From NCBI GenBank assembly GCA_902800025.1, contig CADCDA010000001.1, positions 88,288 to 152,287 of the forward strand: a stretch of DNA of 64,000 nucleotides, read 5' to 3'. Numbering within the stretch: the first letter of the stretch is position 1; every line of letters starts with the position of its first letter. This document shows, piece after piece, positions 1,490 through 59,262 of the stretch. The notes below the pieces were generated by a model. The model was not told the DNA's origin, made no database searches, and saw only the letters and a program-made list of their open reading frames with translations. A program made the translations under genes and the position numbers. This DNA is from an uncultured Erysipelotrichaceae bacterium. GTDB taxonomy: Bacteria; Bacillota_I; Bacilli_A; RFN20; CAG-826.

Positions 1490-1508
1490 CTATACGCCAA
1501 AATAAAAT

Positions 1509-1592: not shown

Positions 1593-1600
1593 CCTATTAT

Positions 1601-1676: not shown

Positions 1677-1681
1677 ATTTT

Positions 1682-1757: not shown

Positions 1758-1772
1758 CTTGATTAAAAAGAT

Positions 1773-1860
1773 GCCCAGGTGGCGGAACAGGTAGACGCAC
1801 AAGACTTAAAATCTTGCGGATGTATAATCCGTACCGGTTCGATTCCGGTCCCGGGCACCA
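1773..1860 (+). tRNA. tRNA-Leu (anticodon TAA)
   Basis: Class II tRNA with long variable arm (GCGGATGTATAATCCGT), anticodon loop CTTAAAA, T-loop TTCGATT, encoded CCA. Confidence 0.8.
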
Positions 1861-9343: not shown

Positions 9344-10462
9344 ATGACAGTAGAAAAAATCAATGAACTCATTATAAATATCCTCGGTGAAGGGGCAAAA
9401 ATCGACCACGAAATGTTAGGTGGTATGATGAATATGTCTTACCAAGTCGTAGACAAAAATGGTAAGAAATATATCCTTTATATTCCAACCGAACAAGCTA
9501 ATGAAATGGTGGACCGTGTTTTAGAAAAAGAGCACCAAAGAATCATTTACGAATTAGGTATCACAAGCAAGAATGTTTATTTCGATGAAAAGACCGGTAT
9601 TAAAATGAACGAATTTATCGAAGGAGATTCCATCAATAATATCGCTTCTTTTGATTATGATAAAATTGCTGCATTATTCAAAAAGTTACATAGCTCAATC
9701 ATGCTATCTAGAAAAGACTACGCTCCATTTACTAGATTTACTGAAATCTATGAAAAAGAAGCCCTTGAATTTAATAAAGAAATTTCTCCTTTATATACTG
9801 AATTAAGGGACTTCCTATTCGCTAAACGTGATTTTTTAGAGTCTCAACCACTCGTTTTATCTCATAACGACGCTCAAAGAAGTAACATTGTCAAAACTCC
9901 TAATGATGAATACTATTTTATCGATTTTGAGTTCGTTGGAAATAACGATCCAATTTATGATATTGCGGCCTTTGGTAACGGTTTAGTGTCCGAAGGAAGA
10001 AAATTATTAGAAAAATATTTTAACGGTAACCCAACTGATAATGAAATTAGAAGATACTATTTATGGAGAATCTACATTTCCTTGCAGTGGTATAACGTCG
10101 CCATCACTAAACATTATCGCGGAGAAGGTGAGAAACATGGTTTCAACTTCTTAGATGTCGCTACTCATTTCTTAAATAACGCCAAAGATGCTTATGATGG
10201 ATATCATCTAGAAATTAGAGATAAAGAAGTTGAAGATGACACTATCGCTTTAATCATCACCACCTTAGATAAAGTTAGACATTTCTTAAGAAAAGATGGA
10301 GGAGACTGTGAATTTGTTTCCTTTGAAAATGGAGTGGTCTATGTCAAAATGCAAGGAGCCTGCGAAGGTTGCTCATTCGCTTATAATGACATTAAAGATT
10401 TAGTGGAAGTCATCCTCCAAGAAGAAGTTCCTGGAGTAGTTGAAGTTCGACTCGCGGAGTAA
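9344..10462 (+). CDS. Choline/aminoglycoside-kinase-like phosphotransferase fused to a C-terminal Nfu/NifU-like Fe-S domain
   Basis: Residues 1-300 carry the Brenner motif HNDAQRSNIV and IDFEF (ChoK/APH fold). Residues 300-372 match the NifU C-terminal domain (DGGDCEFVSFENGVVYVKMQGACEGCS). Confidence 0.6.
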   Translation: MTVEKINELIINILGEGAKIDHEMLGGMMNMSYQVVDKNGKKYILYIPTEQANEMVDRVLEKEHQRIIYELGITSKNVYFDEKTGIKMNEFIEGDSINNIASFDYDKIAALFKKLHSSIMLSRKDYAPFTRFTEIYEKEALEFNKEISPLYTELRDFLFAKRDFLESQPLVLSHNDAQRSNIVKTPNDEYYFIDFEFVGNNDPIYDIAAFGNGLVSEGRKLLEKYFNGNPTDNEIRRYYLWRIYISLQWYNVAITKHYRGEGEKHGFNFLDVATHFLNNAKDAYDGYHLEIRDKEVEDDTIALIITTLDKVRHFLRKDGGDCEFVSFENGVVYVKMQGACEGCSFAYNDIKDLVEVILQEEVPGVVEVRLAE

Positions 10463-18859: not shown

Positions 18860-20952
18860 AGGCTCTGTAATTCTCCTTTGATTGATTTTCTTTTAGAAAA
18901 TGAAATAGGAATTAAAGTAGAAAAAGAAACCACTAGCATCACGACAAGAACAATAAGTAATGGGAATAGAAACTTAATACCAAGGAATTCTAAAAACGGA
19001 ATTACAATAAGTTCCTTAATATCTAAATACTTATATATAAGAATATTGGCTAGTTTCATTAGGCCAAATGAAATACAAACCGATAAAAGAATAGACAAAA
19101 ACCCGTTTACCATTGATTCTTGTAAATAGATTTCTTCTATTTGATCACTAGAAGCTCCAATTGAAGATAAAATAGCGCTTTTCTTATGATCTTCCGAAAA
19201 GCTAGTAAAAGACATTATGCTTAAAATTAGTAATGCTCCAACAAACGCAATAACTAGGAAAAGAATGACACCATATTCTGCGACAGAAAGAAAATTAAAA
19301 AGCGAATCAGTAAGTACCATGGACTGACTCGTGAAGACAAGACCATCACTGAAAATAGAATTATCAAACGGAGTAATCCTATCATTAAAATTCTTCAAAA
19401 ATAGCAAATATGAATATGAAGAAATAATCGCATTATTGTCAGCGTTCATTACTCTATCGTACCAAGTAATATCTTCGTTATTGTAGGTTGATAGATTAAC
19501 TAGAATATAATCTTTACAATATTCTTCAATAGCTAAATAGGAGTAATAGATTTTAGGAGTTGGTAAATAGTTAATTTCTTCAACGATGGCAGAAATTTTT
19601 ATTTTCTTATTCAATCTAAAAATATCATTGACATATTCTTCGGTGTTCGTGACATAAGTCGTTTCAGTTTCATGCTCGATAGTCAAATACTCATTAAGTG
19701 GGTTTTTGCCAATTTCTTTTCTAATTAGATTAGCGGCGCTTTGATTGATTATAACTTCATCGATTGCGGCTTCATCTGGAAGCGTTCCATCCACTATTAA
19801 ACTCCTATCAATATGCTGCCTATCAAATGAGTATATTGGAGTGAATAATAAATCATCAACTATCTCATCATCATATAAAATCTTAATATTTTGTGGGAGA
19901 ATTGCCGAAAAGTTTATGCAAATCTCATATTTTTCAGAAATTTTGGAATTAGACTTAAGGTTTTCATAGTCAGGTCTAGATGACTTGGTTAAAGAAAGCA
20001 TTCCACTCCCTCCAGTTGACGTTTCTTTTGAAACACTTCCAGAGCCAAAATCAAGCTGTTTATAGCACGCCTCCTTTATTGACTTATCCTTGTTATTTAT
20101 AAACCCAACCACTAAATATAGCATCGATAAAACAATCGTTAACGCCACCGAACTAAAGACGTTTCTTTTTATTCTTCTTTTATAGTTACTACTTGCAATT
20201 CGATTGATCCACGATGAACTTCTTTTCATCTGTTTTTTACTAAAACGAATGCTATCTTCTTTTTTATTAATTACTTCATCTTTTACAATTTGGCCATTTG
20301 CTATTTCAATAATTCTATCAGAGTACTGTTTTGTTATTTGAAGGTTATGCGACACCATGATGACTAGCGTGTTTTCACTAATCTTTTTTATTAGTTCCAT
20401 TACATTAGTGGTGTTATCAGAATCTAATGCGCCAGTCGGTTCGTCACACAATAAAATTTTAGGGTCATTCACTATAGCTCTAGCAATACTGACTCTTTGC
20501 TTTTCTCCTCCAGATAATTTGCTTGCTTTTAGATTAAACAGTTCTTCTTTAATCCCCACCATCTTTAAGGATTTAATTGCCTTTTCTTTGCTTTTCTTTG
20601 CGGAATCTCCTTTGATAAGAGAAGGCAATTCGACATTATATAGAACCGTTTCTTCATCTATTAAATTGTAGTTTTGAAACACGATTCCGATATCTTGATT
20701 AAAGAATGTCGTATTTGTTCTTTTATTAAACGATTTATAAGGTCGCCCATATAAATAGATTTCTCCTTCTGTAGGTGTATCAATTCTTGCTATAAGATTT
20801 ATAAGCGTTGATTTCCCACTTCCAGATTTTCCATTAATCGCCACTATTCCTGTTGAATCAAACGATAGATTAATGGGGCCGAGTGCAGTAAAAAAACGAT
20901 CTTTTCCGATTGGGTATCGCTTTGCTAAATTCTTAATTAAAAGTGTTTTCAT
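18856..20952 (-). CDS. Fused ABC ATP-binding/FtsX-type permease (MacB-like), paralogous partner
   Basis: NBD (GKSGSGKST, LSGGEKQRVSIARA, LLCDEPT) plus ectodomain plus FtsX-like C-terminus. Its stop overlaps the downstream gene start by 4 nt (ATGA). Confidence 0.8.
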   Translation of the reverse strand: MKTLLIKNLAKRYPIGKDRFFTALGPINLSFDSTGIVAINGKSGSGKSTLINLIARIDTPTEGEIYLYGRPYKSFNKRTNTTFFNQDIGIVFQNYNLIDEETVLYNVELPSLIKGDSAKKSKEKAIKSLKMVGIKEELFNLKASKLSGGEKQRVSIARAIVNDPKILLCDEPTGALDSDNTTNVMELIKKISENTLVIMVSHNLQITKQYSDRIIEIANGQIVKDEVINKKEDSIRFSKKQMKRSSSWINRIASSNYKRRIKRNVFSSVALTIVLSMLYLVVGFINNKDKSIKEACYKQLDFGSGSVSKETSTGGSGMLSLTKSSRPDYENLKSNSKISEKYEICINFSAILPQNIKILYDDEIVDDLLFTPIYSFDRQHIDRSLIVDGTLPDEAAIDEVIINQSAANLIRKEIGKNPLNEYLTIEHETETTYVTNTEEYVNDIFRLNKKIKISAIVEEINYLPTPKIYYSYLAIEEYCKDYILVNLSTYNNEDITWYDRVMNADNNAIISSYSYLLFLKNFNDRITPFDNSIFSDGLVFTSQSMVLTDSLFNFLSVAEYGVILFLVIAFVGALLILSIMSFTSFSEDHKKSAILSSIGASSDQIEEIYLQESMVNGFLSILLSVCISFGLMKLANILIYKYLDIKELIVIPFLEFLGIKFLFPLLIVLVVMLVVSFSTLIPISFSKRKSIKGELQSL

Positions 20953-30085: not shown

Positions 30086-30430
30086 GTCTTCGATCCTGTA
30101 AGCCATGTTTTGTCTAGGATGATAATTTATCTAAGAATATTCTTACTTGAGTTGATTCGGTTCTCTATCAAGTCTCCCCTACCAAATTTGGGTTTCTCGC
30201 TTACGGGGTTTACCGCGTTCCACTTTGCTCTTTCAAACAAACTTCGTCACTGTGGCACTTTCAGGAATCCTACCATGGGTTGCCCTTTAGGTCGATTTCC
30301 GCCGTCACGCACTCCTACGTGCCTAGTGTTATTTTTTCCACTAGCGCAATCACTACAGCCGTCACAGACTGTGCGAGCATGGACTTTCCTCTAACTAACT
30401 AGTAGCCAGCAATCATCCAGATCGAAGGTT
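30086..30430 (-). ncRNA. rnpB: RNase P RNA, Bacillus type (type B)
   Basis: The minus strand contains AGAGGAAAGTCCATGCTCGCACAG, GGGCAACCCATGG, AAAGTGCCACAGTGACGAAG, GGAACGCGGTAAACCCC, GAAACCCAAATTTGGTAGGGGA and ACAAAACATGGCTTACAGGATCGAAG. The P1 helix pairs CCTTCGATC with GATCGAAG. It lies immediately downstream of gpsB, as in Bacillus subtilis. Confidence 0.85.
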
Positions 30431-30793: not shown

Positions 30794-30923
30794 ATCTCTT
30801 ATATTATCTCTTATATTAAATTATTTTTCTATGAAAAATTACTGAATATAGCACAAAATATTTAATAATTTGATTTTCATTTTCTTGAAAAGAAGATTTC
30901 ACACTTATAAACTTATTACGAAT

Positions 30924-31649
30924 ATGAAACGAGTATTAAAAAATTTTAAAGGCCATAAGCATCTCTGCTTCCTCGATTTCGAAGGAACACAATTCTCTCA
31001 CGAAATGATTGCCTATGGCGCTGTCCTAGTTACCATCGATAAAGAAGGTAACATAGTTAAACAAAAGCCTGCATTAAAGAAATATGTCAGAGCTAAAAAC
31101 GCAGTCGGCAAATACGTTGAAAATCTTACAGGTATCACTAGATTAGACTTGGATCGTTTTGGCGTTAGTTTTTCAGTCGCCATGAAAGACTTGAAAAAAT
31201 ATTGCGGTATTCATTTTAAAGGTTGTTCATTTTTAACATTTGGAAATCACGATATCAGAATCTTAAATCAATCAATCTCATATAACTTAGATGCTCCAAA
31301 AGATTTATGCACAGTAATTAAAAGCAACTATGTTGATTTCCAAGCAATCCTCGCTGAATTCATTAAGGATGACCACAATAATCCATATTCATTAACAAAC
31401 TATTTAAACGTCTTCAATTTAGAGTTTGATGGTGAAGCACATGATCCAGAATATGACGCTGTTAATCTTATGAGATTATATCAAGCATTCATGAAAGACA
31501 CTGATGTTATTGAAAAAGAATTTTTCAAGAATATGAAAAGACACACATTTAATCCAGCGCCAATTGATAGAGTAATCAAAGACTTACTCGATGGCAAGAC
31601 AGTAACACCAGAAGATTTCAAATCATATATTGATAACTATATCGAATAG
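30924..31649 (+). CDS. DEDDh-family 3'-5' exonuclease (DnaQ/KapD-like)
   Basis: Exo I motif FLDFEGT, exo III HDPEYDAVNLMRLY. Start assigned at the ATG at 30924 (MKRVLKNF) rather than the upstream non-ATG extension in the ORF track. The stop lies 1 nt before the recU start. Confidence 0.7.
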   Translation: MKRVLKNFKGHKHLCFLDFEGTQFSHEMIAYGAVLVTIDKEGNIVKQKPALKKYVRAKNAVGKYVENLTGITRLDLDRFGVSFSVAMKDLKKYCGIHFKGCSFLTFGNHDIRILNQSISYNLDAPKDLCTVIKSNYVDFQAILAEFIKDDHNNPYSLTNYLNVFNLEFDGEAHDPEYDAVNLMRLYQAFMKDTDVIEKEFFKNMKRHTFNPAPIDRVIKDLLDGKTVTPEDFKSYIDNYIE

Positions 31650-47147: not shown

Positions 47148-48311
47148 CTAGCCTAATGGTCCACCAGCATTGATAATCATTTTGATTAATTCAATAATGG
47201 CATTGATATCAATTGTGTATTCTGCAGCTTCTTCTTCGGTTAATGGATCAAATTGTGCTTGTTCATTATATGAAACATTAACGTCAACAGAACCTTGAAC
47301 ATCAACTTCTGGGTTTGCTGTTGTGGCGTCAAGTCTCACGCCGAGATATTCAAGAGCAAGAGCGTTTGTGCTACCAGTTGTGTTGCCAACTAATAAACCA
47401 ACACCCGCTGTTCCTTTAGAGAATGTGTTTTGATATTCAGCGGCTTGTTCGATATTGCCCATTTCTTCGACGACATCTCTTTCAACGGTAACGCCAACTC
47501 TATTAACTTTTCCGCTACTATCTTTATATTCAAATAAAGAAGGAACGTTTTCATCTAATTGAGCCATAATATCATCGATATTAATTAAAGAGAAGATAAA
47601 TGGAAGTCCTACTTTAGCGGTATATAAATAATAACCAAGTGGATCAATTGTTGTTGTTCCGCTTTGTTCATCGATAGTTACTTCTGGAACTGTGTAAATA
47701 GCTTTTCCACCAGCGAAGAATGTATCATACATTTGTTCAACATCAATTTGAATTTGTTGTGATGGGTCAAGAGAAAGGAAATAATCAACTACTTTTTGTA
47801 AAACTGGAACTAAATTCTCTTTGACGCTTGGATCAGAGATATCAAGATAAACCTTTGCGCTGTCTTCGGAAACATAATAGTAAGCATTGAGTTTTAATCC
47901 AGAGACAGAGATTGCGCCAATGTTTGGAATTTCGCTAACTGTAAGTGACAAGTCCTTTATGTCTAAATATGCTGAAGCATATTCTTCTTGAGTTTCAGGG
48001 ATATTGAAATAAGCATCAGCTTGTAATTTTAACGAAGCATTGCCTGTTGTGTCTTCGCCAAAAGGAATGCCTTTCGCGTTAACATCGATATCAAGAGAAA
48101 GTTTGATTGAATCTTGTAATAAAGAATTTGCAATACCATCGATGAAAGATTTTAAATCGGCTTTATAAGTGCTTTTACTTTCCTCTGCAGTTGTAACTTC
48201 AGTGCCACCTGCTGGTAATTCGACTTTTGTTGAAAATCCTGCTGGAGCTGGATTATTACAAGCAGTCATAGCCATTACTAATGGCAAAGCTAATAATTTG
48301 GATTTTTTCAT
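47148..48311 (-). CDS. Lipoprotein of unknown function
   Basis: Signal peptide plus lipobox (MAMTAC) followed by a D/E/T-rich mature domain. No recognisable catalytic motifs. Confidence 0.6.
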   Translation of the reverse strand: MKKSKLLALPLVMAMTACNNPAPAGFSTKVELPAGGTEVTTAEESKSTYKADLKSFIDGIANSLLQDSIKLSLDIDVNAKGIPFGEDTTGNASLKLQADAYFNIPETQEEYASAYLDIKDLSLTVSEIPNIGAISVSGLKLNAYYYVSEDSAKVYLDISDPSVKENLVPVLQKVVDYFLSLDPSQQIQIDVEQMYDTFFAGGKAIYTVPEVTIDEQSGTTTIDPLGYYLYTAKVGLPFIFSLINIDDIMAQLDENVPSLFEYKDSSGKVNRVGVTVERDVVEEMGNIEQAAEYQNTFSKGTAGVGLLVGNTTGSTNALALEYLGVRLDATTANPEVDVQGSVDVNVSYNEQAQFDPLTEEEAAEYTIDINAIIELIKMIINAGGPLG

Positions 48312-48399
48312 GAAATGAATCTCCTTTTTTGTTATTGATTAATTATATCACTATTATAATTTGTTAAAAACAAATAAAAAAGATATACTATATGAGGTT

Positions 48400-49365
48400 A
48401 TGAAAACAAAAGAATGGTTCAAAACATTATTAGCAGGCATGGGAATTGGAATTAGTAGCGCGATCCCAGGAGTTTCAGGTGGTACAATCGCTGTTATTTT
48501 AAAAGTATACGAAAAGCTACTTTGGGCAATAAGTAATATCTTTAAAGAATTTAAGAAGGCAGTTATTTATCTACTTCCTGTCTTAATAGGTGTCGTCCTC
48601 GCTCTTATTCCAACGATCTATTTAATGGACAAAGCGTTAAATGGTTTCTTGTTTGGAATTGTGTGTTTATTTGCCGGTTTTATTATCGGTAGCATTCCAG
48701 GAATTACCGATGAAGTTAAAGGCGAAAAGCCACAAAGAAACCACTTAATTGCGTTAATTGTCTCAATTTTAGTCGCTATTGGATTAGGGGTCGCTAGTGT
48801 TCTAGCTAAAGTTGATGCATCTGCTTTATTAGTAACTCCAAAATGGTGGGTATATATCATTCTTATTCCAGTTGGATTTGTTGCTTCCATCGCTCTAGTT
48901 GTGCCAGGACTATCAGGTAGTATGTTGCTTCTTTTATTAGGCTTTTATAAGCCTCTTATTAGTTCCACTGTTGATACTGTTAAAGAATGTTTAGGTGGCA
49001 ATTGGTCTAATTTTGGCCAACAAATCGGTATCCTCGCTTGTTTTGCTGTCGGAGTTATTATCGGCTTCTATTTAATCTCTAAATTAATGCACTTCTTACT
49101 TAGCAAATATCGAATTACAACATTCTATTCAATTATTGGATTTGTTATCGGTAGCACAGTCGCGTTATTCTTCAACTTTGAAATCTATGAATATTATCTT
49201 GTTTGGGCAAGCGGAACATATATCAAAGTTCCTTTATATATTGAAATTCCAATCGCTGTAGTTCTTCTTGTTGGAGGAACAATTGCCTCTTACGCGCTCG
49301 TTAAATATAAAAGAAAAATAGATTCAGAAAATCAAAATAAAGAAATAGAAAACAGTTCGAATTAG
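48400..49365 (+). CDS. DUF368 family membrane protein (PopT-like candidate undecaprenyl-phosphate translocase)
   Basis: Polytopic membrane protein with DUF368 hallmarks (IPGVSGGT near the N-terminus and a repeated PGLSGS). Start set at the in-frame ATG at 48400 (GAGGT just upstream), because a TATAAT box immediately precedes the TTG at 48361. Confidence 0.7.
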   Translation: MKTKEWFKTLLAGMGIGISSAIPGVSGGTIAVILKVYEKLLWAISNIFKEFKKAVIYLLPVLIGVVLALIPTIYLMDKALNGFLFGIVCLFAGFIIGSIPGITDEVKGEKPQRNHLIALIVSILVAIGLGVASVLAKVDASALLVTPKWWVYIILIPVGFVASIALVVPGLSGSMLLLLLGFYKPLISSTVDTVKECLGGNWSNFGQQIGILACFAVGVIIGFYLISKLMHFLLSKYRITTFYSIIGFVIGSTVALFFNFEIYEYYLVWASGTYIKVPLYIEIPIAVVLLVGGTIASYALVKYKRKIDSENQNKEIENSSN

Positions 49366-49380
49366 CGAACTGTTTTTATT
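49352..49380 (+). terminator. Rho-independent terminator of the DUF368 gene
   Basis: Hairpin AGTTCG-AATTAG-CGAACT overlapping the stop codon, followed by TTTTT. Confidence 0.65.
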
Positions 49381-49392
49381 TATATAAATAAA

Positions 49393-51525
49393 CTAGATAC
49401 GATTTAATCTAATTATCGCTTCTTCATTTTCAATGGATTCGACGTAGAATTCCCATCCTAATTCAAGTCCACTATTAAGGAGATAATCTGAAGATTTATA
49501 TAACTCTTTATACGCAAATTGTTTGCCATATTTTTCCATTGAGAAGGAATCACCTTCTTTAAATAAAGAACTTCCATTAAATAGGTTTGATTCAGATCTT
49601 TCATAAATATGTGTAGCGTCTTCATCATTTCTAATTAATGATAAGAGATTGAAATAGGAATATTTCCTATCAATTCTTGCTAAAGGTGTGACATGTGATT
49701 CCATAACGCTTTCATCGATATAGGTGTTTGAGAAAGCGTTTTGTAAACTTCTTTGTCCGCCAGAGGCATCACTAATTAAATCTTCCGTATAAGTGTAATA
49801 TCGATCCACTGTATATGTTAATCTTGCGTCAACATGCCATAAACGGATGCCAATATCTTTCGTTCCTTTTGGATAAACAGAACCAGAAGCAACATATTGG
49901 TGATTACAATCAAAACTATTAAGTCCAGTTGGAGTAAATAACTCCAAAACGAGATATTCATCAAATGGTGAATTATATTCATTCCACGATGGAGTTAAAA
50001 CAATTAGATCACCGGTGTCTTGAAAAGACCCTAATTTGATTCTACAACTTTCAGTTGGAATATATGGACTAGTCCATCCTAAAGACATAACTGAATATGG
50101 ATCATGACCGCCGACATTATAGTCCTGCATTGAAAAACCACCAGACGCTAAATAAGCGTGCGAGCTATAATCGTAATAATCAACAAGTCCTAAAACATGG
50201 CCCATTTCATGAATATATGTATGGGAGTCAAGCAAACAATATGTTGTGCTGCCTTTACTATAAGGTGAACCAGTACGGTCATATGCAGTTGTTTGCCCGT
50301 ACATAAAATCATAACTGGCCCATAAGAACGTTTTAGCATTTGGATTTTCCGGATTTTGTCCATTTGATTCAATCCAATAGCAATACGCCCAGAGATTATT
50401 ATAATCAGAATATTCTTCGCTAACTCCATAGGAGTTACAATCAGGTGCGGCATAAATGACGATAACTCCATCTAAATAGCCATCACCATCACTATCGTAA
50501 TCAGTTCTTTTTTCATCATTGTGATTAGTGAAATACCAATTAACCGCATCATTAACAACTTTTTGTGTTTTAGTGGCCTTTTCAGAACTGTCTTGTCCAA
50601 TATCATCAACGCTGATTTCTGGTTCATACCATTCGCTAACTTTTCCACTTAAAACTAATTCGTCTCTACTTTCAGTTTTATAGAATGAAGAAACGCTATG
50701 CCATCCAGTGTCACTAGTCTCACCAAAGAAAGACTTTTCAATATCATTTCTAATATTCGTTTTGCTACCAGAAAGCTTAAAGAAGTCGCCTGAATCAGTA
50801 AACCAGAGAGGAATGACTAAGATATTAATTTCTCCGCTTGTTGGGCAATTTCTAGGAGACATTGTTTTATAAGTTTGCCCAATCACCACTCTTTCGCTTG
50901 CAGGTAAAACTGAAAATGACAAAGATGTGGAAATATATTCAGATGTACTTGATTTTACTTTGATAGTTAACGTCGTTGTTCCAGTTTCTTCTTCGTAGAA
51001 ATAATACGATGACTTATCGATCTTTTTGATAACGCTGGTTTCTTTATCAGATTCAACAATAATCTCTTCAGTAAAGTTAGAAGGGTTAACTGTAACATTA
51101 AAGAATGTTTCTTCCATAGTCTTTAGACTAGTTGTTTCACATTCCACATTTATATCGGTAGCATAGACATGACTTGAATAAACATTAATCGTAATGGTGT
51201 TTGACTTAATCGCTCCAACATAAGCTGTAACTTCATATTCTCCTGCCTTAGCAAAAGCCTGAGCAGGTGAATAAGAAACACCATTTGAATATAAAGTGAC
51301 GTTGACATTGTTATATGTTAATTTTTCAACGCTCTCATCAGTGTATAATGCATAAATTTCTAATTCGTTCTTTTCTCTAAAAACATCACCGACAACATAA
51401 GCATTATGAATATCATTAATCTCCACTTGCTCGACTTTATTAAACATACGATTAAAAGGAGTTTCGCAGCTTCCGAGTGCAAACAAAATCGTTATTAGTG
51501 GCAAAATATATAATTCCTTTTTCAT
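49393..51525 (-). CDS. M6-family (immune inhibitor A-like) zinc metalloprotease lipoprotein
   Basis: Lipobox FALGSC, then the zinc site HEMGHVLGLVDYYD (HExxHxxGxxD(E)Y, cf. InhA HEYGHNLGLPDEYD). Start placed at the ATG MKKELY at 51525, downstream of the track's TTG start. Confidence 0.7.
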   Translation of the reverse strand: MKKELYILPLITILFALGSCETPFNRMFNKVEQVEINDIHNAYVVGDVFREKNELEIYALYTDESVEKLTYNNVNVTLYSNGVSYSPAQAFAKAGEYEVTAYVGAIKSNTITINVYSSHVYATDINVECETTSLKTMEETFFNVTVNPSNFTEEIIVESDKETSVIKKIDKSSYYFYEEETGTTTLTIKVKSSTSEYISTSLSFSVLPASERVVIGQTYKTMSPRNCPTSGEINILVIPLWFTDSGDFFKLSGSKTNIRNDIEKSFFGETSDTGWHSVSSFYKTESRDELVLSGKVSEWYEPEISVDDIGQDSSEKATKTQKVVNDAVNWYFTNHNDEKRTDYDSDGDGYLDGVIVIYAAPDCNSYGVSEEYSDYNNLWAYCYWIESNGQNPENPNAKTFLWASYDFMYGQTTAYDRTGSPYSKGSTTYCLLDSHTYIHEMGHVLGLVDYYDYSSHAYLASGGFSMQDYNVGGHDPYSVMSLGWTSPYIPTESCRIKLGSFQDTGDLIVLTPSWNEYNSPFDEYLVLELFTPTGLNSFDCNHQYVASGSVYPKGTKDIGIRLWHVDARLTYTVDRYYTYTEDLISDASGGQRSLQNAFSNTYIDESVMESHVTPLARIDRKYSYFNLLSLIRNDEDATHIYERSESNLFNGSSLFKEGDSFSMEKYGKQFAYKELYKSSDYLLNSGLELGWEFYVESIENEEAIIRLNRI

Positions 51526-51551
51526 TTCTTTATCTATTATTATCACAAGAA

Positions 51552-51571
51552 AAGACCTTTGCAAAGGTCTT
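51552..51571 (-). terminator. Terminator hairpin of the small C11 peptidase gene
   Basis: Perfect 20-nt palindrome AAGACCTTTGCAAAGGTCTT followed by a U-run on the minus strand. Confidence 0.6.
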
Positions 51572-51583
51572 TTTCATAGAAAC

Positions 51584-52933
51584 TTATCTAAACAATGCTC
51601 TCCAATTGCTGAAGTTTGTGAAGTTAGCGCTGTAATTCACTTGGTTGTAATAATCTTCCATTGGAACCACAACACATAGTCCATTAGATTCGCCTGCCGC
51701 ATTGCCTCTTTTGTTATAAAGAATAACATCATCAAGAGCATCTTTTGCAGCTTGGATTTGTTCCGAATAACCCGCAAGAAGTGCGCTATTTTCCATTTTT
51801 ACGAGGGCATCATAAGCATCAAATGTACCATAGAAATAATAGCCATGAAGCGTATATGTTCCATCATTATTATTAGAGAACCAAGATGTTGGATAACCAT
51901 AATAATGCGTATATGTGTAGTAGTCATTAGATTCAAACACTTGGTTAGCGTAGCTCTTAACTCTTTTCATTATTGTTCTAAATGAGGTCTTGTTAGTGCT
52001 AACAGTGGTTTTGATATCTTCCGCCAATGTTTCAATCGCATTTTTATATGCACCGATATTATCAAGATTGATAACTGATAAGTTTTGATCGTTGCTTATG
52101 TCATAACCATATCGTCTATAATAGTCAACCATATCATCAACTGATTTGATAAATCCATCACAGACTGCGGTAAGGACTTCTTCAACTGGTTTATGTTCAT
52201 ATAAGTCATCAACCCAGGCATCATATGCCCATCCTTCTCCGACTTCAGCTTCTTCAGAAGCAACCATATATTTGAAATAATTACTGTTGATTTCAGCGAT
52301 ATCTTGAACAGACATCAAACAAGCATCATAACCAATCCAATCTAGCTTTTCAGTTCTGCCAACTGTTTTGAACGCTCCTTTAATGGCTTCAGCGACTTCA
52401 TTATCTGTTAATGAGTCATTGCGGAATGATTCATCAAAGCATACACCATCAAGGGCGCCACCATGATTCCACAATATTACACCAGTCTTTTCAGCAGGAT
52501 ATTCAGTTAAACCCCATTCGAGGAAGCTTTGAAATGTCTTTTTACTTCCCATGCTTGCTTTTAAGAGGTGGTCATCTTTGACAAGATTATTATTTTCAAC
52601 GTGATATCTACCAAGTTCTTTAGAACTAATTCCTAATTCTTTTGACCATTCTTTTGCACCACCAGTTTGAACGATGATGTTAACATCATCAGGTTGACCT
52701 TTAACAGATAAAATCTCTTTTAAGTCAGCAGTAGCAAGTCCAATAGGTCCTTTATCAATTAAGATTCCTTGAGAATTGTAATCACTATAATGTTCACTCT
52801 CTAAGTCTGCACCACACATATAAATCATGATTGTAGTGTCAGCAACGCGAGGACCATTAGCGTTAAGATTATATGAGCAACCAGCCATTGTTAAAAAACT
52901 AACAGCGGTTAAAAGCATTAGTCTTTTTTTCAT
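51584..52933 (-). CDS. Clostripain-like (peptidase C11) cysteine protease lipoprotein
   Basis: Lipobox LTMAGC. C11 catalytic dyad context WNHGGALDG (His) and IGYDACLMS (Cys). MCGADLESE block. Confidence 0.7.
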   Translation of the reverse strand: MKKRLMLLTAVSFLTMAGCSYNLNANGPRVADTTIMIYMCGADLESEHYSDYNSQGILIDKGPIGLATADLKEILSVKGQPDDVNIIVQTGGAKEWSKELGISSKELGRYHVENNNLVKDDHLLKASMGSKKTFQSFLEWGLTEYPAEKTGVILWNHGGALDGVCFDESFRNDSLTDNEVAEAIKGAFKTVGRTEKLDWIGYDACLMSVQDIAEINSNYFKYMVASEEAEVGEGWAYDAWVDDLYEHKPVEEVLTAVCDGFIKSVDDMVDYYRRYGYDISNDQNLSVINLDNIGAYKNAIETLAEDIKTTVSTNKTSFRTIMKRVKSYANQVFESNDYYTYTHYYGYPTSWFSNNNDGTYTLHGYYFYGTFDAYDALVKMENSALLAGYSEQIQAAKDALDDVILYNKRGNAAGESNGLCVVVPMEDYYNQVNYSANFTNFSNWRALFR

Positions 52934-53007
52934 GTCTAGTCCTCCTTAACCCTCATTTAGGGTTATCTTATTATCCAACTTTTATATGATAAATTCCACT
53001 ATTTTCT

Positions 53008-53037
53008 TGTAAAAAAGAAAAGGCTGCACCGCAACCT
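53008..53037 (-). terminator. Terminator of the large C11 peptidase gene
   Basis: Minus-strand RNA hairpin GGUUGC-GGU-GCAGCC followed by UUUUCUUUUUU. Confidence 0.55.
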
Positions 53038-53058
53038 TCTCTATATTTTATATAGTTT

Positions 53059-55812
53059 TTATGCCCACCATTCACCATATTGAGCACATAAAGCTTGCCA
53101 CTTTTTAAAGTTTGTTCTTTCTGCACTATAACATGGTGTATAGGTATTTCCTTGATATACAACAACAGTTGTTTGATTATATCCGCTAATTGGGCAGAAC
53201 ATACAAAGTCCATTACTTCCATTCATTTGTGATCCATGTCTTTCATAGACAACCATCTCGGATAAAATGCTAAGAATTGTGTCAATTTGATTAGATAATG
53301 ATGAGAAAGTGCTATTGCCTTTAACATTAGTTAAAGCGCCCTTGGCATCGAATATATCATATACATAGCCGTTGTTATAATCATTCGTGTCGGCTTGACC
53401 AAATTTCTTTGCTTTATTGACTAATGAAGTAAATGTATTCCATTTGCTTTCAGTCATCATTGAAGTCAATGATTCCGCCATATCTTCCCAAGCTTCTTTA
53501 TAAGCCGCCATTTTTGATAAATCAAGAACGGATTGGGTTTGATCATATAGATGTTGAGCTTCATAGTAATCCATGAATGTATCACCAATCTTGGATAATA
53601 AGGTTACTGTATTAACACCTGATGGATTGCTATATAAAGTTGGTAACCAAGCATCATAATCATAGCCACCGCCATATTCGGATTCTTGTGAACAAATCAT
53701 GTAATTGAAGTTACGACTATTCCACTCAGCAACATCTTGAACCGCCATTAAGCAAGCGTCATATGCGATGAATTCTAAATTCTCAGTAATACCTGCTGTC
53801 GTTTTAGCAGCGGTAACTGCTTGATCGACTTCGTCAGCGTATAAACTGTCGTTGCCGAAATTTTCATCGAAACAGCATCCATCCATTGCGCCACCATGGT
53901 TCCACATAAATAAACCATATCTCTCAGCAGGATAGTTTTCAAAACCCCACTCCAAGAAACTTTGTAAAGTTTCTGGTTTGCCCATACTAGCTTTGGCTAA
54001 TGATTGCTTTTTGATCATTTCTTTACTAGAACTATTGATTTCAAATCTCTCTAATTTACTAGCATCGACATAACTTGTATCCCAGCTACTTGCACCACCA
54101 GTTTCGACAACGATTTTAACACTATCTGGTTGGCTAGTGCGCTTTGAAAGAATTTCATTGATATCGCTTGTCGCATATCCACCACCTTGAGAATCACTTT
54201 CAAGGTCCGCGCCACAAATATAGAAGAGTAAAGTCCAATCATCTAAAACTTGTTCACTAACTGTAACAGCACATGTTGCGGTCTTATTTCCATCCTCAGT
54301 AGTAACAGTAATGGTTGTACTACCAATAGAGACACCTTTAACCACACCATTTGTAACAGTTGCGATAGATGTATTATTAGATTTCCAAGTAACATTTTTA
54401 TTTGTTGCATTAGATGGAGAAATTGTAGGTTCTAAGGTCTTTTCCTTTCCAACACCAATATTTAAGGTTGTTTGAGAAAGGCTAACACCGCTAACAGAAA
54501 CGTTCTTAACTGTAACTGTACAAGAGCCAACTACATCGCTACCATCCTCAGCTTTTCCAGTTGCGGTGATTGTCGTTGTGCCAGCTTTAAGTCCAGTAAC
54601 TAAACCCGTTGAACTAACAGTAGCGACACTCTTATCTGATGAATCCCAAGTAACACTCTTTTGATTAGTGTCAGAAGGAGTAAATTTAGGAGTTAATTGA
54701 ACAGCTGATCCAACATTAACGTCAGTATTTTCCAAACTAATTGAACTTGGATAAATCTTTACAAGAGGTTCAGCCTCAATTTTAATTAAAGAAACAATTA
54801 CTCTTTTTCTTGAACCACTATTTTCAAGTTGAAGCCAAGTAGATTCGTTTTGGCTTGTAAAAGAATATTCATAATCAGCGTAAGATGAGTTAGAAATTGA
54901 TTTAGTTTTAGCGGTTGTTTCTGCGCTTGTAGAAACTTTTAATTGGCAGCCACTATCGCTTCCGTATTCTTTTGCAGTAACCGTTATTTTATTAATAATT
55001 AAAGCATCGGCAAATGTGAATTTGACGCTACCATTTCTACTACTAGAGCCGAGTCTCATTGATTCTTCGCCTGTTCCATAGACATTGTTGACAGAAGCAG
55101 AAGATACTTCAATATCGTGATAAGTAAATGAGGATGATGTAATAGATGTACCACTAGTAACTACTGATGGAATAATAACCATTCCATCCACTGAAGGTGG
55201 AACTTGTTTAGCGTTAACAGTAACAGTACAAGTTGCTTTAACTGTAGATTTACTATTACTAGTTGCAGTTATAACTGCACTACCTTCTTTTAATGTTGTA
55301 ACAGCGCCATTATTTACAGTAGCAACATCAGTGTTAGAACTAGTCCATTTAACAGTTCTATCACTTGCGTTACTTGGTAAAACAGTGGCAACTAAAGTAA
55401 ATGAATCACCTTCTGTCACTTCTTTACTAGTTTCGTTTAATGTAATAGAAGACACTTCAACATTTTTATCAGAAACAGTGATGCTACATGTAGCCTTCAC
55501 TGTATTTTTACTATTGCTTGTAACGGTAACAGTGGTATTACCAGCCTTAAGAGCAGTTACCATTCCTGCTCTGTCAATAGAGGCAACATCAGAGTTTGAA
55601 CTATTCCATGTAACGTCTTTATTTGTCGCATCACTTGGTAAAACAGTCGCGATTAATTGAAAAGTATCATCAACAACTAAATTCTTAGAAGTTTCATTTA
55701 AAGTTATGGAAGTAACCTCTTTAACGTTAACGACTTCTCCTGGATTAATTGATGCACATCCAGCAAGAGACATTACCGCTATAACAGTGAATAAAAACAT
55801 TTTACTTTTCAT
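53059..55812 (-). CDS. Surface lipoprotein with multiple Big_2 Ig-like repeats fused to a C-terminal clostripain-like (C11) peptidase domain
   Basis: Lipobox MSLAGC. Repeated Big_2-type units (VTWxSSNxxVATV...G.TT.TAT). C-terminal C11 motifs YICGADLESD, MWNHGGAMDG and IAYDACLMA. Start placed at MKSKMF (55812). Confidence 0.7.
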   Translation of the reverse strand: MKSKMFLFTVIAVMSLAGCASINPGEVVNVKEVTSITLNETSKNLVVDDTFQLIATVLPSDATNKDVTWNSSNSDVASIDRAGMVTALKAGNTTVTVTSNSKNTVKATCSITVSDKNVEVSSITLNETSKEVTEGDSFTLVATVLPSNASDRTVKWTSSNTDVATVNNGAVTTLKEGSAVITATSNSKSTVKATCTVTVNAKQVPPSVDGMVIIPSVVTSGTSITSSSFTYHDIEVSSASVNNVYGTGEESMRLGSSSRNGSVKFTFADALIINKITVTAKEYGSDSGCQLKVSTSAETTAKTKSISNSSYADYEYSFTSQNESTWLQLENSGSRKRVIVSLIKIEAEPLVKIYPSSISLENTDVNVGSAVQLTPKFTPSDTNQKSVTWDSSDKSVATVSSTGLVTGLKAGTTTITATGKAEDGSDVVGSCTVTVKNVSVSGVSLSQTTLNIGVGKEKTLEPTISPSNATNKNVTWKSNNTSIATVTNGVVKGVSIGSTTITVTTEDGNKTATCAVTVSEQVLDDWTLLFYICGADLESDSQGGGYATSDINEILSKRTSQPDSVKIVVETGGASSWDTSYVDASKLERFEINSSSKEMIKKQSLAKASMGKPETLQSFLEWGFENYPAERYGLFMWNHGGAMDGCCFDENFGNDSLYADEVDQAVTAAKTTAGITENLEFIAYDACLMAVQDVAEWNSRNFNYMICSQESEYGGGYDYDAWLPTLYSNPSGVNTVTLLSKIGDTFMDYYEAQHLYDQTQSVLDLSKMAAYKEAWEDMAESLTSMMTESKWNTFTSLVNKAKKFGQADTNDYNNGYVYDIFDAKGALTNVKGNSTFSSLSNQIDTILSILSEMVVYERHGSQMNGSNGLCMFCPISGYNQTTVVVYQGNTYTPCYSAERTNFKKWQALCAQYGEWWA

Positions 55813-55927
55813 CTTATTTGCCTTCTTCACTCTCTTTAGAGAGATAGTATATAATAGACCATCAAAAAGCATATGTCTATTATTATTTTCAAATAATAAA
55901 TGATAAAAAATTAAAAAATAAGATCCA

Positions 55928-55966
55928 ATCAAATATAAAAAATCACACCCATGTGCAGGTGTGATT
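55928..55966 (-). terminator. Rho-independent terminator of the opp operon
   Basis: Hairpin AATCACACC-TGCACATG-GGTGTGATT followed by UUUUUUAUAUUU on the minus strand. Confidence 0.7.
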
Positions 55967-55973
55967 CTTATAG

Positions 55974-57488
55974 TTATTTGAGTTTTTCTTTATATTTTTC
56001 TAACTCAACAGAGTTCGCTAAGACCCAGTGGCCAGGAACGATTTCTGTAAGTTTTGGTGCTTCTTTAGAATAATCGTGTTCCTTAGAAGGAATATAAAGA
56101 TATCTAGTTCTCTTTTTCTCACTAAGTGGATCTGGTTTTGGAATCGCAGATAATAATGCGTGAGTGTATGGGTGAAGTGGATGTGCAAATAATTCATCAC
56201 TAGTTGCTAATTCAACAATTTCACCATAATACATAACAGCGATTCTGTCACAGAAATACTTAACGACTGATAAGTCGTGAGCAATAAAGAGAATCGTTAA
56301 GCCCATCTCTTCTTTAAGATCATTAAGTAGATTAATGATTTGCGCTCTAATGGAGACGTCTAGCGCAGAGATAGGTTCGTCACAAATCAAGAATTGTGGA
56401 TTCATAATTAAGGCTCTAGCGATACCGATACGTTGACGTTGACCACCAGAGAATTCGTGTGGATAACGCGAAGCGTATTCTGGAAGTAAGCCAACCTTAA
56501 CAAGAACTTCCTTCACTCTTTGTGAATTCTTATAACGATTGTATTGACCTTGAATATGAAGACCTTCTTGAATGATATCTTCAACTGTCATACGAGGATC
56601 AAGAGAATCGACAGGATCTTGGAAAATCATTTGCATTTTGCTCATGAGTTTCTTATCAACATGCTTGTTATCATATTTGATTTGAGCAATAGCTTCGATT
56701 TGTTCTTTTTCAACTTCATCGATGTGCTTTCTAATCGCATCTCTTTCCTTAGAATATCTCTCTCTAATCGCTTCAATTTGTTTAGCGGTTTCTTCATTTG
56801 GAGCGACTTTCTTCGATTCTTTGTATTCTTTAGTCAATTGTTTGAGTTCTTCATTTAACTTCTCAAGTTTGACTTTTCTGACTTCGGCTTCGGAAGAATA
56901 CTCACGATTGATTTCTTCAATCTTATTTGCTCTAGCGACTTCATCATCGATATTTGTATTGTATTGAGTAATACGATCCTTATGTTCGACTTTGAGGTCT
57001 TGGAGTTCTTGTTCAATCTTACTGACTTCAAGATTGATTTGTTCAATCTTTTCCACTAAGCCAGTTGAATCTCTAAGCTTATTGATTTCATCATCTTCAA
57101 GTTTATGAAGTTCTTTGATCTTTTTACGACCGCGAATCTTTGTCCATTTGATTTCTTTTTCGTTCCATCTACTACCGGCAGAAACACGTCTTCCTTCAAA
57201 ATAAACAGAACCAGAAGTGATGTTATAAAGTCTAATCAAACTTCTACCTGTTGTGGTTTTACCACAACCAGATTCACCGACTAAGCCAAAACATTCACCT
57301 TTTTTAATATCAAATGAAACGTCATGAACAGCCTTAGTTTTAAACGCACTACGACCATGACCAAATTTGAAGAATTGTTTTAAGTGTCTAACAGATAATT
57401 CAACACCGTTATCCACTAATTCTTGACGGAAGGAAGGAGTTCTTTTCTTAAATCTCGCTTCAACGCGATAAACTAAACCTTTAAGCAT
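55974..57488 (-). CDS. oppF: Oligopeptide ABC transporter ATP-binding protein OppF with a coiled-coil insertion
   Basis: Walker A GESGCGKTT, signature FSGGQRQRIGIARA, Walker B ICDEPIS and an Opp C-terminal extension. An approximately 170-aa K/E-rich heptad insertion lies between the Walker A/Q-loop half and the signature motif. Confidence 0.85.
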   Translation of the reverse strand: MLKGLVYRVEARFKKRTPSFRQELVDNGVELSVRHLKQFFKFGHGRSAFKTKAVHDVSFDIKKGECFGLVGESGCGKTTTGRSLIRLYNITSGSVYFEGRRVSAGSRWNEKEIKWTKIRGRKKIKELHKLEDDEINKLRDSTGLVEKIEQINLEVSKIEQELQDLKVEHKDRITQYNTNIDDEVARANKIEEINREYSSEAEVRKVKLEKLNEELKQLTKEYKESKKVAPNEETAKQIEAIRERYSKERDAIRKHIDEVEKEQIEAIAQIKYDNKHVDKKLMSKMQMIFQDPVDSLDPRMTVEDIIQEGLHIQGQYNRYKNSQRVKEVLVKVGLLPEYASRYPHEFSGGQRQRIGIARALIMNPQFLICDEPISALDVSIRAQIINLLNDLKEEMGLTILFIAHDLSVVKYFCDRIAVMYYGEIVELATSDELFAHPLHPYTHALLSAIPKPDPLSEKKRTRYLYIPSKEHDYSKEAPKLTEIVPGHWVLANSVELEKYKEKLK

Positions 57489-59262
57489 TGGTCTTTCCTC
57501 CTTTCGCCGCTTTTAAAGAATTCTCGATACGAGTCTTAACAATCTTTGGCATTTCCACTTTTGGCGCTCTTGGATCAAGTAACCAAGTTGCAGCGTAGTG
57601 GGTATCGCTAATCTTAAATAGAGGTGGCTCTTTCTTAAAGTCGATAGCCATCGCATATTTACTACGTAAAGCAAATGCATCACCCTTAGGTGGGTAAATC
57701 ATGTTAGGAGGTGTACCTGGAATTGCTTCAAGTTTTTCTTTACTGTTGATATCTGGGATAGAAGATAGAAGTGCCCAAGTATATGGATGTCTTGGGTCAT
57801 AGAAAATATCATCTTCAGTACCATATTCAACAATCTTACCTGCATACATAACGGCGACTCTATCCGCCATATTAGCAACGACACCTAAGTCGTGAGTAAT
57901 AAAGATACAGGAAATATTTCTTTCTCTTTTTAATCTATTGATTAATTCGAGAATTTGAGCTTGGATTGTCACGTCTAACGCAGTGGTTGGTTCGTCACAA
58001 ATAAGAATATCTGGGTCAGCAGTTAAAGCGATTGCAATAACGATACGTTGACGCATACCACCAGAGAATTCAAATGGATATTGTTTAAATCTCTTTTCTG
58101 GGAATGGGATACCAACTTCTTCCATAATTTTAAGAGCGCGAGCTTTAGCTTCAGCCTTAGTGATTTTGGTTTCAGAAACATATCTACTCTTTTCAGCGGC
58201 AAGCAAACGCTTCATTTCTTCAGGATTATTCGCGTGTTCGCTCTTAATCTTTTCAACATTCGCGTTATATTGAGCCTTTAATTCTTTCGCGTATTGTTTG
58301 ACTTCTTTCTTGGCTTCTTTGCTCTTAGCCTTGAAAGCAATCTTAGTTTCTTTAATGACAGGACTATATTTTTCTTTTAATGCCTTTTTAGAATCTGTAT
58401 TGCTATTATTTACATCTTCAATTTCTGCATCATATTTCGCCCTAACTTCACTCACTTTTTCATTAACGTGAGATTTGATTTCAGCGATTTCTTGATTGAT
58501 TAAGGCCTTTTCTTGCGCGTTTTCTTCTTTTAATGCAAGTAAATCGGCGTCTAACTTTTCTTTGAGAGCCGCCTTCTTTTCATTAGCGATTGTTAAAGCT
58601 GCTTCATCAGCGTTTTGAGTTTGTGCGTCAATTGCTTTAACTTCGTCTTTATACTTTTCTTTAACTTCTAAAACTTTACCGTTATATTCCAAAGATAAAG
58701 TATAGAGTCGACCGCTTCTAGTCATTGATGGTTCGTTCTTAATAGATTCGATTTCTTTCTTGCGTTCACTCTTAAGGAACTTAATCTTTTCATTACGAGC
58801 GTTGACCGCCATTTTGTATTCAGTTTGAGCGTTCTTATAAGCGACGAGTTCAGTGGCCACTAAGTCACTATATTTCTTCTTTAAACGAGAAGAGTTAATG
58901 AGCATCGCTTCTGTAATTTGTTTACCAATTCTAACAATTGGGTTTAATGATGAAAGTGGGTCTTGGAAAATCATTCCAATCTTATGACCTCTAATACGAT
59001 GGAATTCATCCTCACTAACTTTAGTGAGGTCTTCACCTTCGTACATGATAGATCCGCCCATAATACGACCATTCGCGGCTAAAATACCCATGATGGTCTT
59101 ACTAGTAACAGACTTACCACTACCAGATTCTCCAACAATACATAAAGTTTCACCTTTATATAAGTCGAAGGAAACTCCTCTAACAGCTTGAACATAACCA
59201 TGGTCTGTGGAGAAGTTCACTTTTAAGTCTTTAACAGACAAAACAATTTCTTTGTTTTCCAT
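57481..59262 (-). CDS. oppD: Oligopeptide ABC transporter ATP-binding protein OppD with a coiled-coil insertion
   Basis: Walker A GESGSGKSV, signature FSGGMRQRIVIAIA, Walker B ICDEPTT. An approximately 260-aa K/E/A-rich coiled-coil insertion at the same topological position as in OppF. Confidence 0.85.
   Translation of the reverse strand: MENKEIVLSVKDLKVNFSTDHGYVQAVRGVSFDLYKGETLCIVGESGSGKSVTSKTIMGILAANGRIMGGSIMYEGEDLTKVSEDEFHRIRGHKIGMIFQDPLSSLNPIVRIGKQITEAMLINSSRLKKKYSDLVATELVAYKNAQTEYKMAVNARNEKIKFLKSERKKEIESIKNEPSMTRSGRLYTLSLEYNGKVLEVKEKYKDEVKAIDAQTQNADEAALTIANEKKAALKEKLDADLLALKEENAQEKALINQEIAEIKSHVNEKVSEVRAKYDAEIEDVNNSNTDSKKALKEKYSPVIKETKIAFKAKSKEAKKEVKQYAKELKAQYNANVEKIKSEHANNPEEMKRLLAAEKSRYVSETKITKAEAKARALKIMEEVGIPFPEKRFKQYPFEFSGGMRQRIVIAIALTADPDILICDEPTTALDVTIQAQILELINRLKRERNISCIFITHDLGVVANMADRVAVMYAGKIVEYGTEDDIFYDPRHPYTWALLSSIPDINSKEKLEAIPGTPPNMIYPPKGDAFALRSKYAMAIDFKKEPPLFKISDTHYAATWLLDPRAPKVEMPKIVKTRIENSLKAAKGGKTNA

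Follow-up and report, generated by a model that had tools for sequence, protein, structure and literature searches.

The stretch examined here comprises 64,000 nucleotides (nt) from an uncultured Erysipelotrichaceae bacterium (assembly GCA_902800025.1, contig CADCDA010000001.1) and is referred to below, at its full length, as the window. We analyzed two neighbouring genes in it that encode clostripain-like lipoproteins of different length, the small and the large paralogue. Both open reading frames (ORFs) are intact and lie on the minus strand, at the coordinates given by a first-pass annotation made from the letters alone, and its implied start of the large gene at 55812 also stands. The genes, the protease domain of the large paralogue and the codons of the catalytic residues are as follows.

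51584..52933, minus strand: small paralogue gene, 449 amino acids (aa), with lipobox MAGC (Cys19), a 13-residue tether and a C11 domain (ORF, Pfam)
53059..55812, minus strand: large paralogue gene, 917 aa, with a lipoprotein signal, two Big_2 domains, a domain resembling a carbohydrate-binding module (CBM-like), two further Big_2 domains and a C11 domain (ORF, Pfam)
53062..54243, minus strand: C11 domain of the large paralogue, aa 524-917 (Pfam; motif positions; match to clostripain 9cip, E 7e-11)
53896-53898, minus strand: His639 codon of the large paralogue, in WNHGGAMDG
53752-53754, minus strand: Cys687 codon of the large paralogue, in IAYDACLM, with Asp685 two residues before
52463-52465, minus strand: His157 codon of the small paralogue, in WNHGGALDG
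52319-52321, minus strand: Cys205 codon of the small paralogue, in IGYDACLM, with Asp203 two residues before

The window proteins were found again at 97-100% identity in several independent metagenome assemblies, the exact large protein among them; therefore, both genes are real and conserved. The G+C content of the gene pair equals that of the remaining window.

Both proteins belong to peptidase family C11 at the level of sequence, motif and fold. The Pfam family Peptidase_C11 (PF03415, clan CD) matches the small paralogue with 111.3 bits and the large one with 119.5 bits (E-values of 1e-31 and 3e-34; cut-off 25.8), which identifies the C-terminal domains as C11 domains, as first annotated, and not as members of a non-peptidase family. 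Aligned with each other, a comparison that the annotation had suggested, the paralogues are 38% identical over 433 aa (BLASTP, E 4e-86). The AlphaFold2 (AF2) model of the small paralogue has a mean predicted local distance difference test score (pLDDT) of 88.8 and a predicted template modelling score (pTM) of 0.87. Its ten best PDB matches in Foldseek are all C11 structures, in the order clostripain [9cip, E 1.8e-20, template modelling (TM) score 0.64], iotapain, thetapain, distapain zymogen, fragipain and PmC11, and caspases and CHAT proteases rank far lower. The two proteins had also been called lipoprotein paralogs, and each carries a lipobox signal: a basic N-terminus, a hydrophobic stretch and a lipobox Cys are present in MKKRLMLLTAVSFLTMAGC of the small paralogue (MAGC19) and in MKSKMFLFTVIAVMSLAGC of the large one (LAGC19). 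That both proteins are lipid-anchored C11 peptidases we regard as almost certain.

The catalytic residues are conserved in both copies. A His in an H-G context followed by a Cys in an A-C context, the arrangement that defines C11, is present in each paralogue. A profile of 24 family members places the His, Asp and Cys of the window proteins onto the NHGGG and FDAC motifs of clostripain, which hold His176, Asp229 and Cys231 (PMC11296011). The acidic S1 residue two positions before the Cys, which confers Arg/Lys specificity on C11 enzymes and is Asp229 in clostripain, corresponds to Asp203 and Asp685 in the YDAC motif, and this column is invariant in the 24-sequence family alignment (A1). All 59 invariant columns of that alignment, including His157, Asp203 and Cys205, are kept in both window proteins, so peptidase activity of both is plausible. 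These results agree closely with the first-pass annotation, which had described intact catalytic residues in both copies. The His context WNHGGA[L/M]DG is correct (WNHGGALDG and WNHGGAMDG), as is the [I/M]CGADLES block (YMCGADLES and YICGADLES), and the catalytic Cys is retained as Cys205 and Cys687. For the Cys context, given as [I/G]YDACLM, the YDACLM core is found in both proteins; the variable residue, however, is G or A (IGYDACLM and IAYDACLM), not I or G.

Two further cysteines are invariant in the family, Cys40 and Cys165 in the small paralogue and Cys533 and Cys647 in the large one, in the YMCGAD and GVCFDE contexts. Clostripain has them as well (YYCDAD and AICWDD), and the corresponding stretch of the distapain zymogen has an Ala in place of the first and no counterpart of the second. 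A disulfide or a metal site at these positions is possible. The small paralogue also contains an aromatic-rich insertion, ESNDYYTYTHYYGYPTSWFSNNNDGTYTLHGYYFYG, at about aa 333-367 (51830-51940 of the window, minus strand). This insertion is found in many relatives, is absent from the large paralogue and from one subset of the family, and is modelled by AF2 as ordered short strands with a pLDDT of 74-90.

A structural difference from clostripain lies between the two catalytic residues. In clostripain, a nine-residue linker between His and Cys (residues 182-190, EKSNPRLNR) gates the pocket and is excised by cleavage at Arg181 and Arg190 (PMC11296011). Exactly these nine residues form an insertion relative to the profile of the window family (HGGGAR-eksnprlnr-AICWDD versus HGGAL(D)-GVCFDE); judged from its sequences, the family is naturally linker-less. 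Linker-deletion variants of clostripain give active enzyme, according to the title of a paper cited in PMC11296011. Since the family is without the gating linker, the window enzymes would probably work as single chains.

A second type of activation has been described for the Bacteroides C11 lipoproteins, which are nicked in trans after Arg147 or a nearby Lys or Arg (preprint 10.1101/522870). In the window proteins, the loop in question follows the invariant CxDE motif. Arg171 is the sole basic residue of this loop in the small paralogue; the large paralogue has none, and its first Lys after the catalytic His is Lys670. If cleavage here were obligatory, the large paralogue could remain a zymogen, as expected if one or both proteins were catalytically dead and served as surface scaffolds or binding proteins. 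The loop has a basic residue in 53 of 119 homologues and none in the other 66, so obligatory cleavage is unlikely, and cleavage in the loop appears not to be required in the window family. At most one nick in it would be needed, for which Arg171 could serve in the small paralogue. Moreover, neither protein has lost the His, the Cys, the specificity Asp or any other position that is invariant in the family, and both are highly conserved across the metagenomes in which they recur. Dead enzymes are extremely improbable on this evidence.

The starts and transcription signals of the two genes were assigned from the following sites.

55756..55812, minus strand: signal peptide and lipobox of the large paralogue, MKSKMFLFTVIAVMSLAGC, with Cys19 (sequence reading)
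55851..55879, minus strand: promoter-like site TAGACA-17-TATTAT before the large gene (consensus match only)
53016..53042, minus strand: terminator-like hairpin of 12 pairs with a T run behind the large gene (terminator scan)
52986..53013, minus strand: promoter-like site TTTACA-16-TATCAT before the small gene (consensus match only)
55938..55969, minus strand: terminator-like hairpin of 14 pairs behind oppF, between the oligopeptide permease (Opp) operon and the large C11 gene
49349..49376, minus strand: terminator-like hairpin behind the M6-like gene, two-way and common to the convergent gene

The full ORF of the large gene extends over 53059-55932 on the minus strand, and some public gene calls use an ATG 60 nt (20 codons) upstream of 55812, which gives a protein of 937 aa. 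The ATG at 55812 (MKSKMF..., 917 aa) is the most credible start, because it yields a classic lipoprotein signal peptide and lies downstream of the promoter-like site at 55879..55851. The small gene has an AGGAGG ribosome-binding site 7 nt ahead of its ATG. The terminator scan found no terminator in the 58 nt that separate the small C11 gene from the M6-like gene behind it, and these two genes are therefore probably co-transcribed. The predicted transcription units are the Opp operon, the large gene alone, and the small gene together with the M6-like gene. A single operon of permease and protease genes was considered and is ruled out by the terminator-like hairpins on either side of the large gene.

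The large paralogue differs from the small one mainly by its N-terminal extension, which is composed of five domains.

55468..55725, minus strand: Big_2 domain 1, aa 30-115 (Pfam best stretch 32-106; 58% identical to domain 2)
55210..55461, minus strand: Big_2 domain 2, aa 118-201 (Pfam; 261-nt DNA repeat with 75% DNA identity to domain 1)
54766..55209, minus strand: middle domain, aa 202-349, an all-beta CBM-like jelly-roll without a Pfam family (AF2, Foldseek)
54502..54756, minus strand: Big_2 domain 3, aa 353-437 (Pfam, DNA repeat)
54253..54501, minus strand: Big_2 domain 4, aa 438-520 (Pfam; PDB sequence match to the Big_2 domain of 7quz, E 5.5e-17)

Pfam finds Big_2 (PF02368) in four stretches with a total of 215 bits, covering about 340 aa. 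The four domains are 39-58% identical to one another in pairwise comparison. At the DNA level they repeat with a period of 261 nt and 68-78% identity, and an assembly or repeat artefact is ruled out, as the repeats are no more similar than that. The extension had been described as about 550 aa of Ig-like Big_2 modules N-terminal to the protease. The modules and their position are as described; the length and composition needed revision, since about 504 aa follow the lipid-anchor Cys and consist of two Big_2 domains, the CBM-like domain and two more Big_2 domains. The proposed stalk fits Big_2 modules placed between the lipid anchor and the protease.

The middle domain (about 148 aa) has no Pfam match and falls into no defined CBM or Pfam sequence family. 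Its AF2 model, built from a three-sequence alignment, consists entirely of strands and has a pLDDT of 80.6. Foldseek matches this model to CBM29, CBM86, CBM32 and CBM22 as well as, in local alignments of some 120-150 columns, to Cry toxins, with TM scores of about 0.5, E-values of about 1e-4 and 12-15% identity. Word-index searches with the single sequence and with an eight-sequence alignment gave no match, which reflects a limit of the index, as the database holds the protein itself. An exhaustive HMMER search of 1.84 billion representative proteins found 32 relatives. Among these, the accompanying domains are C11 (8), M6 (3), Endonuclease_1 (3), ribonuclease (1) and chitobiase-C-like (6). 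Given the varied domains that its relatives carry, the middle domain appears to be an accessory module common to the secreted or surface hydrolases of this lineage.

This architecture raises the question of whether the enzymes are host- or competitor-directed adhesin-proteases that cleave mucins, immunoglobulins, receptors or the surface proteins of other microbes. The Big_2 and CBM-like modules would then serve as adhesion domains; Big_2 occurs in adhesins such as intimin (PDB sequence match), and the modelled CBM-like fold suggests binding to glycan surfaces. A secreted Bacteroides fragilis protease is reported in a preprint to cleave host PAR2. However, the middle domain also occurs fused to nucleases and to M6 proteases, which suggests a general module for targeting scavenging hydrolases, and the conserved neighbours of the C11 genes are nutrient-uptake and housekeeping genes. 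All related genomes were recovered from uncultured organisms, most of those with a stated source come from rumen or gut, and no known pathogen is among them. Nothing specific speaks for a host-directed role, and we consider colonization factors of this kind unlikely.

To place the two proteins in their family, we collected homologues from a protein database, which holds at least 495 homologues of the small paralogue at E <= 1e-5, and scanned representative genomes, which contain at least 594 encoding stretches. From the scan 80 loci were kept, the best match being 49% identical. Neighbourhoods were counted over 79 related loci, of which L004-L059 are the 56 closer ones. The closer matches of the scan lie nearly all in uncultured genomes labelled Bacilli, Acholeplasmatales, Erysipelotrichales or Bacillales, many from rumen or gut, and the more distant ones in Clostridia. 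A lipobox is present in at least 94 of the 120 best homologues, and ordinary signal peptides are seen in others; the N-terminus is extended by at least 60 aa in 58 of the 120, mostly with precomputed Big_2 matches. With about half of the closest homologues extended in this way, a C11 lipoprotein with a Big_2 extension is a routine layout for the clade and not an oddity. The syntenic relatives, with stop-to-stop ORFs as long as 1,849 codons, carry one to four Big_2 domains and unassigned regions. A search of the literature for clostripain in Acholeplasma, RFN20, Mollicutes or the rumen turned up no paper about the window family.

Of the 79 related loci, 12 have neighbouring C11 genes, and all of these belong to the 56 closer loci. 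Arrays of two to four are frequent in the family, and L021 and L050 have four C11 genes each. The window pair had been regarded as duplicated and diverging. A recent tandem duplication is ruled out by the orthologues. The small paralogue is 54-77% identical to its orthologues (P0002-P0005) and the large paralogue 49-69% to its own (P0145, with the same layout of four Big_2 domains and C11, followed by L022 and P0149), versus 38% between the two copies; each is 35-40% identical to the ortholog group of the other. Because each copy is nearer to orthologues elsewhere than to its neighbour, the duplication is old, and the paralogues are, by these identities, two old subfamilies kept adjacent.

The genes on either side of the pair also encode functions related to peptides.

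49393..51525, minus strand: M6-like zinc metalloprotease lipoprotein, 710 aa, with HEMGH at 439 (Pfam PF05547, TIGR03296)
55974..62515, minus strand: oppB-oppC-oppD-oppF, a mycoplasma-type oligopeptide permease directly upstream of the large gene (NCBIfam, Pfam)

On the minus strand the order is a Big_2 lipoprotein (62746-63915), oppBCDF, the large C11 gene, the small C11 gene and the M6-like lipoprotein; beyond the latter follow a convergent VCA0040-like gene, a 387-aa lipoprotein, pth and mfd. The oppBCDF order is the same in L001 and L004. The block of OppBCDF, one or more C11 genes, M6-like, VCA0040-like, Pth and Mfd recurs in L004, L014, L021 and L023 and is partly kept in L013, L042, L051 and L035. 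The adjacency of Opp and C11 is conserved in the closest genomes only. An M6-like gene directly next to a C11 gene was counted in 12 of the 79 related loci, each of which belongs to L004-L059, and pairs of C11 and M6-like genes outside an Opp context are found in L039, L046, L047, L032 and L035.

The conserved pair of C11 and M6-like genes, at times away from Opp, and the probable co-transcription of the small C11 gene with the M6-like gene would also suit a different function, in which the C11 enzymes mature or activate the cell's own surface or secreted proteins, such as the M6-like protease or a toxin. Fragipain is the model for this. It processes the inactive protoxin of the B. fragilis toxin BFT, and C11 enzymes are described as activators of several Bacteroidales toxins (e.g. 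PMC8406203). The alignment of 11 M6-like neighbours shows no conserved pro-domain, which weakens this explanation; short M6-like forms start the catalytic domain 20-40 residues after the lipobox Cys, and the extra N-terminus of the long forms is Ig-like. The C11 arrays, moreover, reach four genes and vary in their binding modules, which looks more like broad substrate capture than like a single dedicated processing step. Maturation or processing is thus the main rival to a nutritional role, although we judge it unlikely.

Several features of these neighbours are worth recording. The M6-like relatives share an invariant HExGH..GL.DYYDY motif; in the long forms two Ig-like domains precede the catalytic domain, and in the short forms it lies right behind the lipobox. 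The M6-like protein has no PDB sequence match. OppC (59262-61472, minus strand) has 736 aa, with about 460 unassigned residues between the N-terminal transmembrane segment matched by Pfam OppC_N (aa 47-88) and the permease core (aa 550-732). In OppD (57481-59262, minus strand) and OppF (55974-57488, minus strand) the ATPase domain is interrupted by long insertions; both proteins match best to the models of Mycoplasma mycoides MMSYN1_0167/0168. No SBP_bac_5 (OppA-type) binding protein was found among the ORFs of at least 150 aa in the window. Directly upstream of oppB, behind its own terminator and at the same position in L004, lies the gene of the Big_2 lipoprotein (62746-63915, minus strand), which has 389 aa with the lipobox LTVSSC and a single Big_2 domain; its C-terminal part, about 270 aa long, is unassigned. 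Opp might use this protein as a divergent substrate-binding or capture protein. For the 387-aa lipoprotein (47148-48311, minus strand), which is kept in the syntenic block of L023 and L042, neither Pfam nor NCBIfam nor a PDB sequence search gave a match. The five lipoproteins predicted in the window, namely the Big_2 protein, the large C11 protein, the small C11 protein, the M6-like protein and the 387-aa protein, are all encoded within 47148-63915, a 17-kb region around Opp, and the remaining window is housekeeping.

Taken as a whole, we favour a reading in which surface proteolysis specific for Arg and Lys feeds peptide uptake via Opp, and consider it probable, if well short of assured. Judged by its relatives, the host is an uncultured, rumen-type, mollicute-related member of the class Bacilli. 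The N-terminal lipid anchor would hold each enzyme on the outside of the cytoplasmic membrane; sortases are lacking in the related orders RFN20 and ML615J-28 (PMC10868615), which fits lipid anchoring as the route of display. The small enzyme would work near the membrane, and the large one would be held some tens of nanometres out on its Ig-like stalk, where the CBM-like module may dock it on a glycan-bearing surface. At the cell surface, both enzymes would cut extracellular proteins after Arg or Lys. Together with the probably co-transcribed M6-like zinc protease, they would turn environmental protein into oligopeptides for import by the adjacent Opp. Of the two roles named in the first-pass annotation, virulence or nutrition, nutrition gains some support from the conserved Opp and M6-like neighbours in rumen-commensal genomes, and virulence gains none.

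Several observations weigh against this reading. First, oppF is separated from the large gene by a strong terminator-like hairpin (55969..55938) and a promoter-like site, so protease and permease are not predicted to share a transcript; with a further strong hairpin behind the large gene, the proteases are outside the Opp operon and linked to it by neighbourhood only. Second, under strict criteria only two of the 79 related loci have Opp no more than 3 kb from a C11 gene, and many members of the C11 family are located elsewhere in their genomes. Third, the preference of both enzymes for Arg and Lys is suggested by a single feature, the conserved Asp. The C11 fold of the large paralogue would follow from its 38% identity to the small one, for which the model was built. 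Lastly, the middle domain is CBM-like at the level of the predicted fold only, with a TM score of about 0.5 and a model from three sequences.

A more far-reaching joint reading can be formulated for the sortase-poor, mollicute-related gut Bacilli. Arrays of lipid-anchored C11 enzymes and M6-like zinc proteases would form a modular 'protein utilisation locus', in which a previously undescribed CBM-like jelly-roll, also present on nucleases of the lineage, docks hydrolases on plant or host glycans. Being linker-less, the C11 enzymes would act constitutively as single chains, in contrast to the zymogen rule for characterized C11 enzymes. We offer this as speculation that is unlikely to hold.

Other parts of the window contain features apart from these genes. 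A 372-aa protein at 9344-10462 (plus strand) is an unusual fusion of a choline/ethanolamine-kinase-like (APH) domain and, at the C-terminus, a NifU-like domain. The neighbouring 929- and 698-aa proteins at 16070-18859 and 18856-20952 (both minus strand) each join an ATP-binding cassette (ABC) ATPase to an FtsX-type permease. An RNase P RNA of class B (30094-30424, minus strand, 273.9 bits) and a cluster of five tRNAs (1414-1860, plus strand) fit a Bacillota chromosome. The 259-aa ORF at 30870-31649 (plus strand) has no Pfam match.

These results provide a sound annotation for many proteins of rumen and gut Bacilli that are publicly named only 'Ig-like domain-containing protein' or 'hypothetical'. 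They point to a way in which small-genome, possibly wall-less or thin-walled commensals may cover their need for amino acids, through Arg/Lys-specific cysteine proteases and a zinc protease at the surface beside a peptide permease. As natural linker-less relatives of clostripain, the proteins could reveal whether C11 enzymes dispense with zymogen cleavage. The current understanding is not overturned, as this is an uncharacterized clade of a known peptidase family with a layout routine for the clade; the new elements are minor and consist of the linker-less active-site region, the conserved pairing of C11 and M6-like genes and the rare CBM-like module.

Among known systems, the best structural match and the best PDB sequence match is clostripain from Clostridium (Hathewaya) histolytica (MEROPS C11.001, PDB 9CIP). 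It shares with the window proteins the same His...Asp-x-Cys arrangement and two more Cys contexts (YMCGAD/YYCDAD and GVCFDE/AICWDD), and the whole domain aligns, including its C-terminal part. However, the identity is only about 20%, and the NCBIfam equivalog TIGR02806 scores 48.4 bits with the large paralogue versus a cut-off of 550 and does not match the small one; by these sequence measures, the window proteins are not clostripain orthologues. Whereas clostripain is freely secreted, the window proteins are predicted to be lipid-anchored. No 23-residue propeptide is evident in them, and the excised linker (182-190) is absent.

The Bacteroidales C11 lipoproteins (thetapain, iotapain, fragipain, PmC11 and distapain) resemble the window proteins in their C11 fold, in their signal peptides with a lipobox and in the occurrence of more than one paralogue per genome. 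They prefer Lys or Arg at P1 and have the same Asp (preprint 10.1101/522870). In contrast, they belong to another phylum with another type of envelope and are 14-17% identical in structural alignment. They have about 370 aa and, unlike the large paralogue, no Big_2 or CBM-like extension. Their activation in trans takes place after Arg147 or its equivalents, whereas the window loop offers a single Arg in the small paralogue and no basic residue in the large one.

Several homologues are publicly named 'Ig-like domain-containing protein' or 'YjdB'. As in the large paralogue, their tandem Big_2 domains lie N-terminal to the enzyme domain, and these names reflect the Ig-like part only, not the protease domain.

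A purely functional analogue is the system of cell-envelope proteinase and permease (PrtP/Opp) of lactic acid bacteria. In common with it, the window combines a predicted surface-tethered endopeptidase with a neighbouring oligopeptide ABC permease, in an organism that presumably relies on amino acids from outside. PrtP is a subtilisin-like serine protease anchored to the wall and not a C11 lipoprotein. Unlike in PrtP/Opp, the coupling of protease and permease in the window is suggested by gene neighbourhood alone.

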